Assembly (NCBI GenBank): GCA_051439505.1
Contig: JBFRWI010000148.1
Location: forward strand, 1-64,000
DNA from: Hormoscilla sp.
Lineage (GTDB): Bacteria; Cyanobacteriota; Cyanobacteriia; Cyanobacteriales; Desertifilaceae
Direction: 5' to 3'
DNA: 64,000 nucleotides
Position numbers and translations under genes: made by a program. Positions 1,901-28,263 of this stretch are shown piece after piece. How positions within the stretch are numbered: the stretch's first letter is position 1; each line of letters begins with the position of its first letter. A model generated the notes under the pieces. The model was not told the DNA's origin. It made no database searches and worked only from the letters and a program-made list of their open reading frames with translations.

Positions 1901-3790
1901 TTATGCTAACAGCAAATTAGCTGCTCCTTCAATCCGTTCCAAAGGAGTCACCGAACGAGGTAAAATCGGCAAACGCACGATCGCCCGATCGCCAAAAACG
2001 CCCTTCTGCAATTGGTCGGCAGCATCAAAGCCATTATGTACCACATAGCGCTGAGAAATACCCAATTCCTCTAAAGACTCATTTAATCGCAACTGCTCGG
2101 CAATAATCGCCCCTCGGGCTTGAAAAACCCCGATAAACTCGGTATGTTCGGGGTCTTTCAACTGCTTCTGGGCGTTAACTGCCCGTTTGCGCAAAGTCCG
2201 CAGGCGGCCCATAAACTCCGTCCGACCTAACACATCTTGATACTTAATCCAGAGTTTGAAAATCCAGGCCAACCAGTCGGATAGGGCCCCAGGCATTTCC
2301 AGAAAGCTCAATAGATGACCCGTGGGTGCGGTATCCAAAATAATTAAATCTTGTTCTTGCTTTTCTAGCAACTGCATCACTGCCAACAGGGAGAGAATCT
2401 CATCAATTCCCGGTAAAGATTGATCGACAATTTTCTTCCAAGCTTCGGGAATATAGAGGAGTTGCAGGTTGCTGTCGCTGTTACCGGTATCTCCACTAAT
2501 CATTTCTGCCAGTTCCCACAAATACTCTTCTCGGAAATCCTGCAACATCTGTTCGGCATCAATTTCCGCAGCACTTAAGTTATCCGTCAACTGGGTGGGT
2601 TCGTGGCCCAATTGGAGCCCAAAGGCATCTCCCAAGGAATGGGCCGGGTCGATGGAAATTACCCGCATATTCTTGTCGGGATGCCCTTGGGCCAGGCCCC
2701 AGGCGATCGCGGCTGATACGGTAGTTTTGCCAACACCACCTTTGCCGCCGACAATAATTAAGCGGCGACCTTCAGCGACAAAATCGCTCAAACCAGGGGG
2801 AATTTTTTCCGGCCATTCCACCACGGGGGCTGCTGTTGGCAGGGAAATACCCGCCTCGATGGCTTGAATTTGACCGAACAGTTGGTCTAGCGCTTCTCCT
2901 CCCAAGGGTTCGGTAGCCTGCTGAGGTGCGCTAAAGACCGGGCGCTCCTCTGCCAGAGTGATAAACTCTTGTAAGAGCTGCTGCTGTTCGCTGTAGCGAT
3001 CGCCCTCTCTCGCAGATAGGCCCTGAGAGACAATCCGATTGAGCAACAGGCCCCCAGCATGAATCTGTAGCTGTTCTAGGGAAGCAAGAAAGCGCTTAGT
3101 TTCCAGCCAGCTCATCTGCTCTGCTATACTAACTATTAAGCAGGCAGTACGCTGTCCGTCCTGCAACAGCGAGCGTCCAGAGGTTAACTCCTGCTGCATA
3201 TCTTGGAGGAAATCATCCGCTGCATCCGGGTTATAGCGCCCAGTGAAAGCCTTGGCGATCGAGCGATGCTTTTCCTGAAAGAGGTCCAACGCCTGCAACA
3301 AAGTATCCAAAAAATCCATCAGTCCCAGCAAAGCAGTCGCATGACCGCTGGGAGCCATATCCACCACCACTCGGTCTACCACCTTTTCCGTCAGCAGGCG
3401 TTGAATCTCCAAAATCCCCATCAACTCATCGAGTCCCGGCCAGCTCAAATCCCACGCTGGAGTCAAATCGGAGGCTTCCGCAAAGCTGCCCCGTTCCACC
3501 AGTTGCTGCAAAACCTCTCCGTAGCGGTCTTTGAACTCCTCCAATAACTGTTCGGCATCCAGGGCCCTGACAGTCAGGTTCGGCAAATCTGCTACGGGAC
3601 GAGGGGTATTATCAACCGTCAGCAGCAACACATCGCTCAGGGAATGGGCCGGGTCCGTAGACAGTAGCAGGATCTGCTCGTCGGGAAACTGCTGGGCCCA
3701 TCGACGCGCAAACCCGCTGGATAGGGTGGTTTTCCCCACACCCCCTTTGCCGCTAAACATGACAAGCTGGAGAGAATCGTAATGGTGCAT
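1901..3790 (-). CDS. ArsA/Get3-family ATPase with two tandem domains
   Basis: Two GKGGVGKTT Walker A motifs, two DPAHSL motifs, DMAPSGH and DTAPTGH switch motifs. Confidence 0.9.
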   Translation of the reverse strand: MHHYDSLQLVMFSGKGGVGKTTLSSGFARRWAQQFPDEQILLLSTDPAHSLSDVLLLTVDNTPRPVADLPNLTVRALDAEQLLEEFKDRYGEVLQQLVERGSFAEASDLTPAWDLSWPGLDELMGILEIQRLLTEKVVDRVVVDMAPSGHATALLGLMDFLDTLLQALDLFQEKHRSIAKAFTGRYNPDAADDFLQDMQQELTSGRSLLQDGQRTACLIVSIAEQMSWLETKRFLASLEQLQIHAGGLLLNRIVSQGLSAREGDRYSEQQQLLQEFITLAEERPVFSAPQQATEPLGGEALDQLFGQIQAIEAGISLPTAAPVVEWPEKIPPGLSDFVAEGRRLIIVGGKGGVGKTTVSAAIAWGLAQGHPDKNMRVISIDPAHSLGDAFGLQLGHEPTQLTDNLSAAEIDAEQMLQDFREEYLWELAEMISGDTGNSDSNLQLLYIPEAWKKIVDQSLPGIDEILSLLAVMQLLEKQEQDLIILDTAPTGHLLSFLEMPGALSDWLAWIFKLWIKYQDVLGRTEFMGRLRTLRKRAVNAQKQLKDPEHTEFIGVFQARGAIIAEQLRLNESLEELGISQRYVVHNGFDAADQLQKGVFGDRAIVRLPILPRSVTPLERIEGAANLLLA

Positions 3791-3924
3791 AGATTTCGGC
3801 TGCGATAAAGGTGAACTGTTCTTGATAGTGCCACAGATCGGGGTAACTCCGGGACTGCCCACATAATGAAATTAGGTTAACATATTTTACCCTTAGCGCT
3901 GCTTTTTCTTGGTTGGGGAAACCC

Positions 3925-22657: not shown

Positions 22658-22686
22658 TTGTCAAATTTGACAAAAAAAGGTAAAAT
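22658..22686 (+). promoter_or_regulatory. Putative gvpA promoter with overlapping palindromic operator
   Basis: TTGTCA-17 bp-TAAAAT; perfect palindrome TTGTCAAATTTGACAA at 22658-22673. Confidence 0.55.
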
Positions 22687-22742: not shown

Positions 22743-22970
22743 ATGGCAGTAGAAAAAGTGAACTCGTCGTCAAGCTTGGCAGAAGTGGTAGACCGGATCC
22801 TGGAAAAAGGGATCGTGATCGATGCCTGGGTACGTGTTTCTCTGGTAGGGATCGAACTGTTGGCTATAGAAGCTCGCATCGTCATCGCCTCAGTAGAAAC
22901 TTACTTGAAGTATGCTGAAGCCGTAGGGCTGACTTCTCAAGCGGCGGTGCCGACTGTTGCTGGCGCGTAA
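22743..22970 (+). CDS. gvpA: Gas vesicle structural protein GvpA
   Basis: [45 protein letters not shown], canonical. Confidence 0.98.
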
Positions 22971-23215: not shown

Positions 23216-23812
23216 ATGGCAACTCTTTTAAGTAAGTGGAACGACGCTAGGAAAAAGCGCAAGGAAGCAAATAAAGCAATCTCTCAACACGTTAACAGGA
23301 CTCTGGCGGCTGAGTGGCGTGAGGGACACAGACGGCGAAAGCAAGAAAAGAGAGAGCGGGCCTCAGAGGTTCGCACTCTTCAGCTGGAGACTAAAGAATT
23401 CTTATCCGAGACGAACCAGGAACGTAAGCAGATGACGGCAGAGCAGCAGCAGAAATTAGCGGATTTTCTGGGAGAAATGAAAGATTATGTCCAAAATTTT
23501 CGGCAAGACTTCTCAACGCGGAAAAGGACGGAAGTTCAGCAAATGCGAGCGAAAAATCAGGCGGATCTGTCTCAGAGTTCGGCAGAATTACACTCAGAAC
23601 TGCATCAGTATCGTGGGAATTTAAGAATATCAGTTTGGGGAACTAACGAAGAGGCACTTGTATACGAATGCATCCAGAACAGGAAAGGTGTTCGGATAAC
23701 AGAAATTGAGGAAGCTTTGGGAATAACGCGGGTCAAAGCAGTTGATACAGTCAAATCTTTAATGCAACAAGGTCTGGTAGTAGAGCGGGATCAAATGTTT
23801 TTCTTGCGGTAA
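23216..23812 (+). CDS. gvpC: GvpC-like protein with C-terminal winged-helix-like domain
   Basis: Between gvpA and gvpN; helical repeats (TKEFLSETNQER), LRISVWG motif, then a wHTH-like tail. Confidence 0.75.
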   Translation: MATLLSKWNDARKKRKEANKAISQHVNRTLAAEWREGHRRRKQEKRERASEVRTLQLETKEFLSETNQERKQMTAEQQQKLADFLGEMKDYVQNFRQDFSTRKRTEVQQMRAKNQADLSQSSAELHSELHQYRGNLRISVWGTNEEALVYECIQNRKGVRITEIEEALGITRVKAVDTVKSLMQQGLVVERDQMFFLR

Positions 23813-23824
23813 TAATTGCTAACT

Positions 23825-24910
23825 ATGCCAACAGTATTACAAGCACGATCGAGAGGATTTGTCAATACCCCAGCGGTAGAAAGCCTGGCAAACAGGGCCC
23901 TGCGTTATCTGAAATCGGGATTTCCAGTGCATCTGCGAGGACCGGCGGGTACGGGAAAGACAACCTTGGCCCTGCATCTAGCAGATCTGCGAGGTCGTCC
24001 GATGATGCTGATCTTTGGTGATGATGAGTTGAATACATCGGATCTGATCGGCAATAAAACGGGTTACTCCCGAAGAAAGGTGGTGGATAACTTCATTCAC
24101 ACCGTGGTCAAAATGGAAGATGAAATGCGGCAAAATTGGGTAGATTCCCGATTGACTCTGGCCGCAAAGGAAGGATTTACCCTGGTATATGACGAATTTA
24201 ACCGATCTCGACCAGAAGTAAATAACGTCCTGCTATCGGTGATCGAAGAAAAACTGTTGGTTTTGCCCCCGAGTAACGAAAGTGCGGAATATATCCGGGT
24301 ACATCCGGAGTTTCGGGCCATCTTTACTTCCAATCCCGCAGAATACCACGGCGTTCATGCTACCCAAGATGCGCTGATGGACCGGTTGGTGACGATGGAT
24401 GTACCGGAACCGGATAAGCTGACGCAAACGGAAATTCTGACGCAAAAAATTGGCATCGACAGGGAAGAGGCTTTGAGACTGATATCTCTGGTGCATGATT
24501 TTCGGGGGAAGACGGGTACAGAAAAGTCTTCGGGACTGCGATCGATTTTAATGATTGCCAAGATATGTAAGGATCATGAGATCCCCATATTGCTGGGCAA
24601 TGATGAATTCCGGGATGTATGCGCAGATGTACTGGTGTCTAGACTAAGTAAAAAACCAGATGAGGCAAAAGTTAAGCTGTCGGAGGTGCTGAATAAAAAG
24701 TTTGTTAGCAACAACAACGATCGGGAAGTTTACCAATATTTGCACCAAAATGAAGGGGCGCGAATGTCCGAAATAGAATCGGCAATGGGATGGAATCGGG
24801 TGGAAACGGTCAATGCCCTGCGATTGCTAATGGACAAAGGGAGGATTAAGCTGAAGGACGATCGCCTCTACGTTGTCGAAGAACAGGATCAACAGGATGA
24901 ATCATCGTGA
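23825..24910 (+). CDS. gvpN: Gas vesicle AAA+ ATPase GvpN with C-terminal winged-helix-like extension
   Basis: [41 protein letters not shown]. Confidence 0.95.
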
Positions 24911-25242
24911 CGGACCGAAACAGGATAATTACATCTACCAGTGGCTCGACTTTAGCAGATGTTCTAGAAAGAATTCTGGATAAAGGGATTGTCATCGCTG
25001 GAGATGTATCTGTATCAGTCGGATCGACGGAACTGCTGAATATTCGCATCCGCTTGCTGATTGCCTCGGTGGACAAAGCGAAGGAATTGGGGATTAACTG
25101 GTGGGAAAGCGACCCCTATTTGAGTAGCAAGCAGCAGCAGTTGCAGGAGGATAACCAAAAGTTACTAGATAGAATAGAGAGTTTAGAAAATAAATTGCGC
25201 AGTCTCAAAGAAGCATCGCCGGAGTCAAATCCAGAAGGTTGA
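24907..25242 (+). CDS. gvpJ: Gas vesicle protein GvpJ
   Basis: [20 protein letters not shown]...[13 protein letters not shown]. Confidence 0.95.
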
Positions 25243-25278
25243 AAGTAAGATAGAGATAAAAATCAGGAGATTCAAATT

Positions 25279-25629
25279 ATGGGTAAGCGTGTAATACTTT
25301 CATCAGAATATAGAAAGATGCTGGAAGCAGATGATAAACGTCGCTATCAAGAATCCCACAGCGCTTTTTTGAATTATCAAGCAAAGTTTATAGCAGATGA
25401 CGATCGGCGCAGACGCAACTGGGTTGAAGATGGAAAACGCCGCTTTGCCGAGTGGCACAGGGGTTTTTTGAACTTTCAAGAAAAATTTCTGAAGGGCAAA
25501 GCAGCGTATATAGCAGATGACGATCGCCGTCGGCGGGAGTGGGAAGAAGATCGCAAACGCCGCAATAAGGAATCTCAGACGGAATTCCTAGATTATCAGA
25601 AAAAGTATCTTGATGAAATGTCTCTATAA
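25279..25629 (+). CDS. Uncharacterised gvp-operon protein with 33/40-residue helical repeats
   Basis: AGGAG RBS; three KRR....H..FL.(Y/F)Q.K(F/Y) units. Confidence 0.8.
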   Translation: MGKRVILSSEYRKMLEADDKRRYQESHSAFLNYQAKFIADDDRRRRNWVEDGKRRFAEWHRGFLNFQEKFLKGKAAYIADDDRRRREWEEDRKRRNKESQTEFLDYQKKYLDEMSL

Positions 25630-25743: not shown

Positions 25744-26187
25744 ATGGTAAAAAAATATATCTCATCAGAAGAATATCGGCAGAGGTTGGTGCGAGATGCA
25801 GATCGCCGCTTTGCCGAATGGCACAGGGACTTTCTTGACTATCAGAAGAAGTTCCTCGCGGAAATGTCGCTACATCCACTAGAGTCAGAAGTTGCGGCCC
25901 AAAAGACCGAACCTAGCAAGAGAGTGGAAAAGAAACCTGAAAAAAAGGTGGAGACTACACCTCGGGTGGCAAAGGCACAAAGTAACCGGAAAGAAAATAG
26001 ACCATCGCCCCAGGGAGTAGAGTCGGAACCTAGTAACCAGAAGGAAAATAGGCAGTTGCCCCAGCGAGTAGAGTCCGAACCTAGTAACCAGAAGGAAAAT
26101 AGGCAGTTGCCCCAGCGAGTAGAGTCGGAACCTAGTAACAGGAAGGAAAACGGACAGAGGCAGGAGAATAGACCCAAAAATGAGTGA
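25744..26187 (+). CDS. Uncharacterised gvp-operon protein: one repeat paralogous to the previous gene plus a 17-aa tandem-repeat tail
   Basis: RRFAEWHRDFLDYQKKFLAEMSL shared with the upstream ORF; VESEPSNQKENRQLPQR repeats. Confidence 0.75.
   Translation: MVKKYISSEEYRQRLVRDADRRFAEWHRDFLDYQKKFLAEMSLHPLESEVAAQKTEPSKRVEKKPEKKVETTPRVAKAQSNRKENRPSPQGVESEPSNQKENRQLPQRVESEPSNQKENRQLPQRVESEPSNRKENGQRQENRPKNE
25981..26151 (+). repeat. 51-bp coding tandem repeat, about 3.3 units
   Basis: AGTAACCAGAAGGAAAATAGGCAGTTGCCCCAGCGAGTAGAGTC.GAACCT. Confidence 0.9.
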
Positions 26188-26257: not shown

Positions 26258-26710
26258 ATGCCACCACCCCTTGACCTGTCGCAAAATCCAACCAACAGGG
26301 ATGCCGGTTTAGCACAGTTGCTACTGACAGTAGTGGAACTTGTACGTCAGTTGATGGAAGCGCAGGTAATACGCCGCATGGAAGCGGGAAATCTCAGTGA
26401 GGCAGAAATAGACCGCGCTGCTGAGAGTTTGCGCCAGTTAGAAGCACAAGTGTTACAATTATGTGAGGTGTTTGACATCGACCCGGCAGAATTGAACATT
26501 GACTTGGGAGAAATCGGTAGTCTGCTGCCCAAATCAGAGTATTATCCAGGAGAGTCCTCAGAAAATGCTTCGATTTTAGAATTGCTTGACCAACTACTAG
26601 ACACTGGTATCGTGGTCGATGGTGATGTCGATGTGGGGTTGGCAGATATAAATTTGATTCACCTGCGGTTAAGATTACTCTTAACATCTCAACTGCTTCC
26701 ACGTTCCTAG
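26258..26710 (+). CDS. gvpK: Gas vesicle protein GvpK
   Basis: GLAQLLLTVVELVRQLMEAQVIRRME...LNIDLGEIG. Confidence 0.95.
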   Translation: MPPPLDLSQNPTNRDAGLAQLLLTVVELVRQLMEAQVIRRMEAGNLSEAEIDRAAESLRQLEAQVLQLCEVFDIDPAELNIDLGEIGSLLPKSEYYPGESSENASILELLDQLLDTGIVVDGDVDVGLADINLIHLRLRLLLTSQLLPRS

Positions 26711-26738
26711 ATTGCAAATTGAAAAATATCTTGGCTTC

Positions 26739-26839
26739 GCTGTCGCGCATTGAAATTGCATGGATCGAAATGCTGAAACCAAAGAATATCGAATAGTTTC
26801 CCAATTTTGAATTTTGAATTTTGAATTTTGAATTGCTTA
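26739..26839. repeat. Family B repeat abutting the gvpF start codon
   Basis: GCTGTCGCGCATTGAAATTGC...(TTTTGAA)4 TTGCTTA; the final A is the A of the ATG. Confidence 0.7.
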
Positions 26840-27579
26840 TGGCATCTATCTATCTATACGGTATTTTTCCACCTCCTGGTCCAGTTGACTTAGAGTTACA
26901 AGGGTTAGATAAACAACCGGTACAGAGTCAGTCGGTGGATGGGTTTGTTTTTCTGTACTCGGAAGCATTAAAAGAGAAGTATTTAGCGAGTCGCCGCAAT
27001 TTGCTGGGTCATGAAAAGGTGTTAGAGTCGGCGATGCAGGCGGGTTATCGGACCCTTTTACCTTTGCAGTTCGGACTGGTTGTCGAAGATTGGGAAATGG
27101 TGAGTCAACAGTTGACAAAAACTCAAGGTGAAGGGTTACAACGACTGTTTGCTAAATTAGAGGGACGCCGGGAGGTGGGGATTAAAATTTTCTGGGATCC
27201 TGATGCTGAGTTGCAAATGCTGTTGGCAGAAAATCAGGATTTGAGGGCGAAACGGGATAGTCTTTCCGGAAAGGTGATTAGCGTGGATGAGACGATCGCG
27301 ATCGGGCAAACCCTGGAAAGAGAAATGCGATGGCGACAGGAGGGCATCATCGAGGTATTTGAAGGGACATTAAATCCCTTAGCAGTAGAGGTGGTCGAAA
27401 ATGATACGTTAATGGAGAAAATGATTTATAATGCTGCCTATCTAATTCCTTGGGATGATGAGGAGAACTTCTCAGAGGAAGTGGAAGTCTTAGACCAGAA
27501 GTTTGACGGGCGCTTGCGCATCCGCTATAATAATTATACGGCTCCTTTTAACTTTGCCCAACTAGAAAAACGAGAATAA
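26839..27579 (+). CDS. gvpF: Gas vesicle protein GvpF (GvpL/F family)
   Basis: YLYGIFP...YLASRRNLLGHEKVLE...LLPLQFG...RIRYNNYTAPFNF. Confidence 0.92.
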   Translation: MASIYLYGIFPPPGPVDLELQGLDKQPVQSQSVDGFVFLYSEALKEKYLASRRNLLGHEKVLESAMQAGYRTLLPLQFGLVVEDWEMVSQQLTKTQGEGLQRLFAKLEGRREVGIKIFWDPDAELQMLLAENQDLRAKRDSLSGKVISVDETIAIGQTLEREMRWRQEGIIEVFEGTLNPLAVEVVENDTLMEKMIYNAAYLIPWDDEENFSEEVEVLDQKFDGRLRIRYNNYTAPFNFAQLEKRE

Positions 27580-27583
27580 TAAT

Positions 27584-27829
27584 ATGCTTTTACGTTTACT
27601 GACTTTACCGCTGATGGGCCCGATCGAGGGCGTTACGTGGATTGGAGAGCAAATCCTGGAACGTGCGAATGCGGAATTGGATGATAAAGGAAATTTACAT
27701 AAGCGACTGTTAGCACTGCAGCTAGCTTTTGACATGGGGGAAATATCTGAGGAGGATTTTGAAGAGCAAGAGGAAGAGTTGTTGCTGGCAATTCAAGAAA
27801 TGGAAGATAGCGAAACAGATAATGATTAA
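27584..27829 (+). CDS. gvpG: Gas vesicle protein GvpG
   Basis: GP..GV.WIGEQI.ERA...LQLAFDMGEISEEDFE..EEELL. Confidence 0.93.
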   Translation: MLLRLLTLPLMGPIEGVTWIGEQILERANAELDDKGNLHKRLLALQLAFDMGEISEEDFEEQEEELLLAIQEMEDSETDND

Positions 27830-27900: not shown

Positions 27901-28263
27901 TTAATATTCCAGCAGGAATGCCTGAAACTGATCTGACTGAGACTCTTGGGGTTTAGGAGTCGGTTTCCTCTGTATTCTCTGAACTCGATCTCCGCGAGAG
28001 GTCGCCGCCGTTTGTGGATTCACTTGCGAGTTTTCAAGTTCAAATTTAGTGCTGTTGATAATCTCACGCATCTCGTGCTCCAGGATGAAGATGCGCTGGT
28101 GAATCTGTTCGCGGCGTAAGTCGAGGTTGTCCAGTTCTTGTTCGAGGCGTCTCTTTTCCAGCGTTATCTGATACATGCGGAGATAGTCCGATACCTCCGA
28201 ATTATTACGGGGTAGGCTGCTAATTTTGGGGGTAATTTTCCGGCGGGAGGGTCGTCGTTGCAT
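27901..28263 (-). CDS. gvpV: Gas vesicle accessory protein, GvpV-like
   Basis: ITPKISSLPRNNSEVSDYL.MYQ...EKRRLEQEL and C-terminal F.LEY; convergent with gvpG. Confidence 0.7.
   Translation of the reverse strand: MQRRPSRRKITPKISSLPRNNSEVSDYLRMYQITLEKRRLEQELDNLDLRREQIHQRIFILEHEMREIINSTKFELENSQVNPQTAATSRGDRVQRIQRKPTPKPQESQSDQFQAFLLEY

Follow-up and report, generated by a model that had tools for sequence, protein, structure and literature searches.

The gas-vesicle cluster of the cyanobacterium Hormoscilla sp. raises the question of why GvpC, a coat protein with a helical rod, and GvpN, an ATPase of vesicle assembly, should end in the same small domain, and what that domain might recognise. The stretch of DNA analysed, referred to here as the window, comprises 64,000 nucleotides (contig JBFRWI010000148.1, forward strand). 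In Planktothrix GvpC40 a 28-aa C-terminal stretch is 64% identical to GvpN, with the fold left unnamed in the sections of the paper that deal with it (Pancrace 2017, PMC5259702), while for PCC 7120 GvpN the relevant parts of PMC7204071 describe only an AAA domain. An earlier note on this DNA had taken the homology to be undescribed; the likeness of the two C-termini is in PMC5259702, but a winged-helix fold or a function for them was not found in the literature searched, subscription journals lying outside its coverage. Not found in print were the predicted fold, the independent losses and the link to Gln66 of GvpA; further new observations are the lack of an operator-like motif upstream of gvpA in the loci compared, the near-neutral charge of the domain and the loss of a linker with the domain kept, the homology being partly in print.

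The cluster is intact and has the order gvpA-C-N-J, two repeat ORFs, then K-F-G, with a gvpV-like gene on the opposite strand (Table 1). The gvpA gene is present as a single copy in the assembly (tblastn of the genome). GvpN belongs to the MoxR-type AAA+ ATPases, scoring 394.5 bits against a cut-off of 266.8 for TIGR02640, with CbbQ/NorQ as its best Foldseek matches, and its predicted C-terminal domain adjoins the last helix of the ATPase lid with nearly no spacer. This GvpN linker is the shortest of 29 measured, some others being nearly as short.

Table 1. Gas-vesicle genes and sub-features of the window, with the basis of each assignment.
Feature	Position	Strand	Basis
gvpA, major shell protein, 75 aa	22743..22970	+	PF00741 and NF006874 above cut-off
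GvpA C-terminal x-Q66-A-A-V-P motif	22935..22952	+	Gln66 codon 22938-22940; pattern match 22917-22945
gvpC, shortened long-type GvpC, 198 aa	23216..23812	+	gene slot; one sub-threshold GvpC repeat match
GvpC winged-helix domain (predicted), aa 145-198	23648..23809	+	BLASTP, AlphaFold2, Foldseek, VIA-align
gvpN, MoxR-type AAA+ ATPase, 361 aa from ATG, core aa 12-273	23825..24910	+	TIGR02640
GvpN winged-helix domain (predicted), aa 296-351	24710..24877	+	AlphaFold2 secondary structure; profile match 88.6 bits
gvpJ	24907..25242	+	PF00741
gvpK, gvpF, gvpG	26258..27829	+	PF05121, PF06386/NF052351, PF05120
gvpV-like gene	27901..28263	-	tblastn with gene in the gvpV slot of locus L064: 30% over 115 aa, E 5e-6

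The two ORFs between gvpJ and gvpK (25279-25629 and 25744-26187) are related, sharing a 'DADRRFAEWHRDFLDYQKKFL'-like repeat unit and 55% identity over 36 aa; the second has repeats of 17 aa at its end, and family searches returned no match for either. Small relatives (47-60 aa) occupy the same slot in L003, L070, L073, L074 and L078, and this is possibly the GvpX slot. About 19 kb from the cluster lies an ArsA-like ATPase gene (1907-3796, minus strand), a gene that in Nostoc-type clusters follows gvpW; the gvpW of the window's genome starts at the end of another contig and is cut by the contig end. The nearest named relatives are two Hormoscilla records (L013, L014) with GvpN identities of 86% and 72% in the best segment, in which gvpN is broken and gvpA is absent from the fetched DNA, the window's own cluster being intact. 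Among four other genomes of the genus, gvpN is partial in two and absent in two.

The relationship between the two tails is well supported. Both peptides on which the earlier note had based a shared domain are present in the sequence, and BLASTP of the full proteins aligns the last 49 residues of GvpC to GvpN 302-350 with 16/49 identities, 31/49 positives, no gaps and an E-value of 1e-7. The Smith-Waterman score of 93 exceeds all 2000 shuffles (mean 34, maximum 72). The claim that the tails align without gaps stands for this pair, while family alignments need a single gap in the wing to accommodate an extra residue present in many GvpN tails. At the DNA level the tails share only 75/147 positions, which argues against a recent duplication, and a search of the assembly yielded no third copy. 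Concerted evolution of the tails within genomes was also considered and is unsupported, tails of one genome being 44% alike against 43% between genomes (permutation p 0.11). A tree of the tails rests on few columns and needs four label changes.

The fold is clear as a prediction. For the GvpC tail, AlphaFold2 run on a 52-row tail alignment gives helices at residues 2-15, 20-27 and 31-44, a short strand between the first two, and strands at 47-50 and 53-56, with a mean pLDDT of 87.9; the GvpN model has the same order of elements at residues 296-351. Both models thus display the three-helix bundle and beta-hairpin wing (a1-b1-a2-a3-b2-b3) of a winged helix-turn-helix, as the earlier note had supposed from the helix-helix-helix-hairpin pattern. 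Foldseek places the tail beside CadC, Sul7s, Z-alpha and MarR domains at TM 0.7-0.9 (up to 0.92), the best E-value being 1.8e-3, so that no match falls at E<=0.001. With VIA-align, the 50 best matches listed are all winged helices (Z 11.4 to 9.4, rmsd 0.6-1.6 Å over 54-57 residues) and mix DNA binders with protein binders (ESCRT-II, ScpB, RPA32C, Stn1). By sequence, 47/52 members of the tail family match Pfam TrmB at E<=0.05, and the 57-aa GvpC tail scores 27.4 bits against a cut-off of 25.6, whole GvpC and GvpN falling below it; neither protein has another TrmB or MarR domain, whether for dimerisation or for an effector. Among solved structures CodY is closest in sequence (E 6e-4), and the ESCRT-II and CdvB winged helices match in fold (3cuq, VIA-align Z 9.9; 2xvc, E 0.85). 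CodY, TrmB, MarR, Z-alpha and the ESCRT-II/III winged helices therefore have the predicted fold in common with the tails at 10-27% identity, with the family binding residues mostly absent, and no single family stands out.

Whether such a domain would bind nucleic acid or protein can be approached through its conserved surface. Residues R172, V176 and L182 are invariant in 117 GvpC tails, and E146, G158, R160, E165, Q174, D192, R193 and Y195 nearly so. By helix periodicity the outer face of helix 3 carries R172, F/V173, V176, D177 and R180, with F, V or I at 173 in 112/117 tails and D177 in 104/117, forming a hydrophobic patch that contains an acid. The mean net charge is +0.4 to +1.1 (GvpC tails +1.1), and none of the cysteines or histidines is conserved across the 117 GvpC tails. 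Z-alpha domains are marked by Asn and Tyr on helix 3 and Trp in the wing; the tails have V176, D177 and R180 on helix 3 and a wing devoid of Trp. Three of the tails' helix-3 positions are occupied in CodY by Val, Asn and Arg. Of the CodY residues A207, D208, R214 and S215, reported as essential for DNA binding (PMC5100569), the tails retain only the Arg (R214), with a near-invariant Glu in place of A207 and Phe/Val in place of S215.

The earlier note had suggested autoregulation, with the tails of free GvpC or GvpN acting as sequence-specific regulators of the gvpA promoter. The Pfam matches are indeed to winged helices of transcription factors (TrmB, MarR), and a perfect short palindrome overlaps a promoter-like site at about 22658-22671 of the window. 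For 18 tail-bearing loci, however, a simple word count over the 350 bp that precede gvpA, limited in power by low identity among the promoters, found no dyad or 7-8-mer above shuffles except the cyanobacterial HIP1 octamer, present in 7/18. Autoregulation is accordingly disfavoured and must be called very improbable. A separate observation concerns 14 tail-less clusters (L047-L082), 9 of which, mostly Nostoc-type, carry TTTACAT(T) upstream of gvpA (shuffle maximum 8), perhaps as a regulator site.

A second possibility is that the tails bind nucleic acid non-specifically and anchor both GvpN and the vesicles on the nucleoid or on RNA, serving positioning or inheritance through the sum of weak contacts. 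The best solved-structure match, CodY, and most structural neighbours bind nucleic acid, including Z-alpha and Sul7s among the closest folds, which counts against docking on the GvpA shell (see below). The CodY R214-equivalent Arg is invariant, helix 3 resembles that of CodY, an AAA+ ATPase with a C-terminal winged helix is the layout of RuvB, and the shell protein EutK bears a comparable helix-turn-helix tail of unexplained function in the account of PMC5821096. Set against this are the near-zero net charge, the retention of a single one of the four essential CodY residues, a wing of only two residues, a linker that was dispensable in the window's lineage and a pattern at GvpA Gln66 that tethering leaves unexplained (both below). 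Tethering is thus judged unlikely, and the tail surface together with the missing operator leans towards protein binding over DNA.

A phylum-wide sample of 301 genomes contains 40 with gvpN above cut-off; strong tail matches (at least 60 bits) occur in 17/40 of these and in 0/261 others, weak matches of 25-34 bits elsewhere being probably ordinary regulators. A class-level sample of 401 genomes contains 197 with gvpN and 130 with the tail, 127 of which also have gvpN, so that 127/197 gvpN-bearing cyanobacterial genomes carry the domain. Against 1.84 billion proteins the tail profile gives 525 matches at E<=0.001, the best 150 comprising 130 GvpC-type proteins, 5 GvpN-type proteins and 15 linker-plus-tail fragments. 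As judged by profile matches in the phylum sample and in the best 150 of 525, the tail domain is confined to gas-vesicle clusters. The gvpW gene was considered as a correlate of the tail and dropped, being present regardless of tail state (38/40 strong matches).

How far the two tails depend on each other was surveyed in 161 non-redundant loci with intact gvpN, a non-random set picked for diversity (13/174 were left out as duplicates or for broken gvpN). Both tails occur in 91, the GvpC tail only in 13, the GvpN tail only in 18 and neither in 39. The last class includes loci with gvpC beyond the fetched DNA, and frameshifts may account for a few of the GvpN-only loci. Each of the 13 GvpC-only genomes has a single tail match genome-wide, and these loci overturn a rule from a smaller set, in which the GvpC tail never occurred without the GvpN tail (0/39 loci). 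As each tail persists without the other, an obligate pair of winged helices is unlikely, which weakens the earlier proposal that GvpN is recruited by direct pairing of its winged helix with that of GvpC.

A looser form of contact has to be weighed, in which the tails bind each other (C-C, N-N and optionally C-N) or another Gvp protein, giving end-to-end joining of GvpC or bundling of vesicles, and recruitment of GvpN where both tails are present. The hydrophobic patch of helix 3, flanked by Arg and Asp, could pair antiparallel; the haloarchaeal GvpC C-terminal domain associates with itself and binds GvpN and GvpO (PMC9372576); and GvpN tails diverge in the Nostoc-type clade that has lost the GvpC tail. 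Each tail survives alone, so that C-N pairing is not obligatory, and tails within a genome are no more alike than tails across genomes, as given above. GvpJ, GvpK and GvpG have no site that tracks the tail, and gvpW is independent of it. Such contacts are judged unlikely. Distance ratios (2.97 against 2.14) give no clear sign that GvpN-only tails decay faster, being blurred by saturation and unequal depths.

Loss has been frequent. On the GvpN tree the GvpC tail changes state 6 times and the GvpN tail 13 times. Four Nostoc-type loci (L049, L050, L055, L057) retain decayed GvpN tails behind the gvpN stop, recognisable at a best E-value of 2.6e-8 and interrupted by stops, the GvpC tail is split in L186 and L188, and a GvpC tail that looks intact survives in the broken cluster L013. 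A divergent copy is also found on database Nostoc and Anabaena GvpN proteins, whereas classical GvpC ends before the domain. The decayed tails behind gvpN, together with the end of classical GvpC, point to loss from a tail-bearing ancestor, shown for some lineages. Such losses, the decayed copies and L013 would all suit old passengers with little current function; exposed residues that are invariant in 117 GvpC proteins otherwise about 30% identical, and a domain retained here although the linker and some of the rod have gone, make this highly improbable. In genus g47, four genomes carry an extra Microcystis/Nostoc-type gvp cluster beside their own type (L165-L168 versus L190, L192, L196 and L198), which suggests horizontal transfer of an entire cluster.

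The GvpC of the window bears on the role of the domain through what it has lost. Its helical rod is short and ends in SVWG (aa 139-142), and the winged helix follows after about 3 residues, where the linker measures 28-187 residues (median 80) in 117/118 measurable relatives; the short, linker-less form occurs also in three close homologues. The curated cut-offs for the 33-residue repeats of cyanobacterial GvpC are not reached, with a single repeat match scoring 16.6 against 21 bits for PF01304 (E 0.007) and 16.9 against 18.8 bits for TIGR02641 (E 0.005). The protein nevertheless has the features of the long, GvpC40-like type: the slot between gvpA and gvpN, a W8/R15 start, a rod ending in VWG (W8, R15 and V140-G142 being near-invariant in 117 relatives) and a GvpN-like C-terminal domain, all but the long Pro/Ala-rich linker. 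Classical cyanobacterial GvpC of the Anabaena and Microcystis type (PF01304, TIGR02641) occupies the same slot and ends in FxSIFG, equivalent to ISVWG here, just where linker and winged helix begin in the long type, and so reads as a truncated version of it.

The junctions appear sound. A contig from run X2, which belongs to the study of the possible source, covers 23404-24060 without difference, and two further studies contribute collinear contigs for 23586-25300 (runs X6 and X7); their agreement indicates that the linker-less form is not an assembly error. Related clusters are also present as contigs in two RNA-library runs, which is no proof of transcription. The window's lineage lost a GvpC linker of about 80 residues yet retained the winged helix, and long reach would then not be essential to the role of the domain in this lineage. 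In another family, f29 (L081:7586-7795, minus strand, and L160), the place of the winged helix at the end of a long GvpC is taken by another helical domain, unrecognised and without a match to the tail profile (hhalign probability 3%); residue 66 of GvpA is Thr in this family.

The shell protein itself offers a candidate ligand. Gln66 of GvpA is present in 101/101 loci with an ordinary tail, where the neighbouring position 65 varies freely, with about 25 changes on ordinary-tail branches. In six lineages with a lost or divergent tail Gln66 is replaced in four (by Ser, Ala/Ser, Ser/Thr and Leu) and retained in two; lineages L082/L170 and L078 have Gln66 and no tail in the fetched DNA. L082, a tail-less cluster, is also unusual in encoding a GvpA of 154 aa with an 80-residue Gly/Val/Pro-rich C-terminal extension. 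Across 272 invariant sites (53 in GvpA and 219 in GvpN, J, K, F and G) Gln66 alone changes in four lineages, and three others change in three; the counts for GvpK, F and G rest on five lineages, and those for GvpA omit 21 more loci without fetched gvpA. In the 401-genome sample, cross-read by hand, the GvpA pattern occurs in 120/127 tail-bearing gvpN genomes and in 0/70 tail-less ones, the seven exceptions being two fragmented drafts and five Nostoc-type genomes whose GvpN tails are divergent. Within the four g47 genomes with two clusters each, the ordinary-tail cluster has xQAAVP where gvpA was captured (3/4), and the second clusters have QSAAVPA, a tail-less GvpC and a GvpN tail devoid of the helix-3 motif.

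The association was picked post hoc, and about six independent lineages are too few for significance. Eleven Nostoc/Microcystis-type loci, which form one clade together with tail-less loci, have a GvpN tail and no Gln66; they were set apart by the analyst as divergent, and if counted as tail-bearing they lower the figure to 101/112. On well-supported branches only two independent pairs of Gln66 and tail remain (sign test p 0.5), and unconstrained parsimony gives p 0.17-0.27, not significant. A cluster is inherited as a unit, so the same pattern could arise from linkage or from a constraint imposed by the GvpC rod, although family f29, with its long rod retained, another C-terminal domain and Gln66 lost, runs against the rod as cause. 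A single polar residue is, moreover, a thin basis for a candidate binding site.

With these reservations, peptide binding at the vesicle surface would fit the sequence evidence best. It is quite possible, if short of probable, that both tails recognise the outer GvpA shell, probably its flexible C-terminal peptide around Gln66. The copies keep the same surface residues and either can be lost alone, the pattern expected of a shared third ligand. The flexible C-terminus of GvpA lies on the outside, beneath GvpC, and its coil tolerates mutation in a tail-less Anabaena hybrid system (PMC10185304); GvpU binds the flexible C-terminal tail of the shell protein (bioRxiv 2023.06.01.543273); and GvpN interacts with GvpA2 (PMC11445434), its mechanism on GvpA being stated as open (PMC10903477, PMC11445434). 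If docking is correct, the winged helix would give GvpC a second grip on the shell besides the rod; in long-linker relatives its reach could extend to another rib or to an adjacent vesicle, and in the linker-less protein of the window it would sit beside the rod end. Several winged-helix grips on a GvpN ring would draw the ATPase to GvpA where the shell is growing. The more specific proposal, somewhat unlikely as it stands, is that a duplicated winged helix reading the C-terminal xQAAVP peptide of GvpA is the shell-recognition module of an ancestral-type system, from which model bloom-former systems lost both module and Gln66; the domain would then be the substrate-recruiting arm of GvpN, and on GvpC could clamp or cross-link vesicles. 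Many gas-vesicle clusters lack the domain, so the roles of both tails would be accessory.

The significance lies in the fact that roughly two thirds of the sampled gvpN-bearing cyanobacteria carry a domain that the best-studied models lack or hold in divergent form. If docking to the GvpA tail proves true, a 55-residue domain and one point mutant (Q66S) would make recruitment of GvpN testable and would offer a means, specific to genotype, of decorating engineered vesicles or clustering them, and the window cluster supplies a natural linker-less version of the domain. If DNA binding is true instead, the domain would link gas vesicles to the nucleoid.

Comparison with known systems places the tails within a recurring design. 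The closest is GvpC40 of benthic and of biphasic Planktothrix, by description the same domain pair, with a long GvpC and a conserved C-terminal region of 60 aa (PMC5259702); the GvpC of the window, at 198 aa, has a much shorter rod and no linker. GvpU of Bacillus megaterium is a separate, phase-separating protein for which homology is not claimed (bioRxiv 2023.06.01.543273). EutK, whose C-terminal helix-turn-helix (PF16365; PMC5821096) is likewise small and carried by a shell protein of a protein-based organelle, belongs to a microcompartment and not to a gas vesicle, and no alignment shows specific kinship; it was the third feature match in the Atlas (0.86), a lead only, all matches in that search lying below 0.9. 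Haloarchaeal GvpC likewise combines helical repeats, a linker and a small C-terminal domain (aa 329-382), which binds GvpC, F, H, I, L, N and O (PMC9372576) and by itself narrows vesicles and alters their shape (PMC9501494). That domain has a zinc-finger motif, in contrast to the window-type tail with no conserved Cys or His, and the passages of PMC9372576 and PMC9501494 that describe it mention no copy on GvpN; it may be regarded as a functional analogue of the tails, homology not being claimed. The tail domain is an old, widespread accessory, a variant of the design in which a GvpC rod bears a small C-terminal domain, with a second copy on GvpN.
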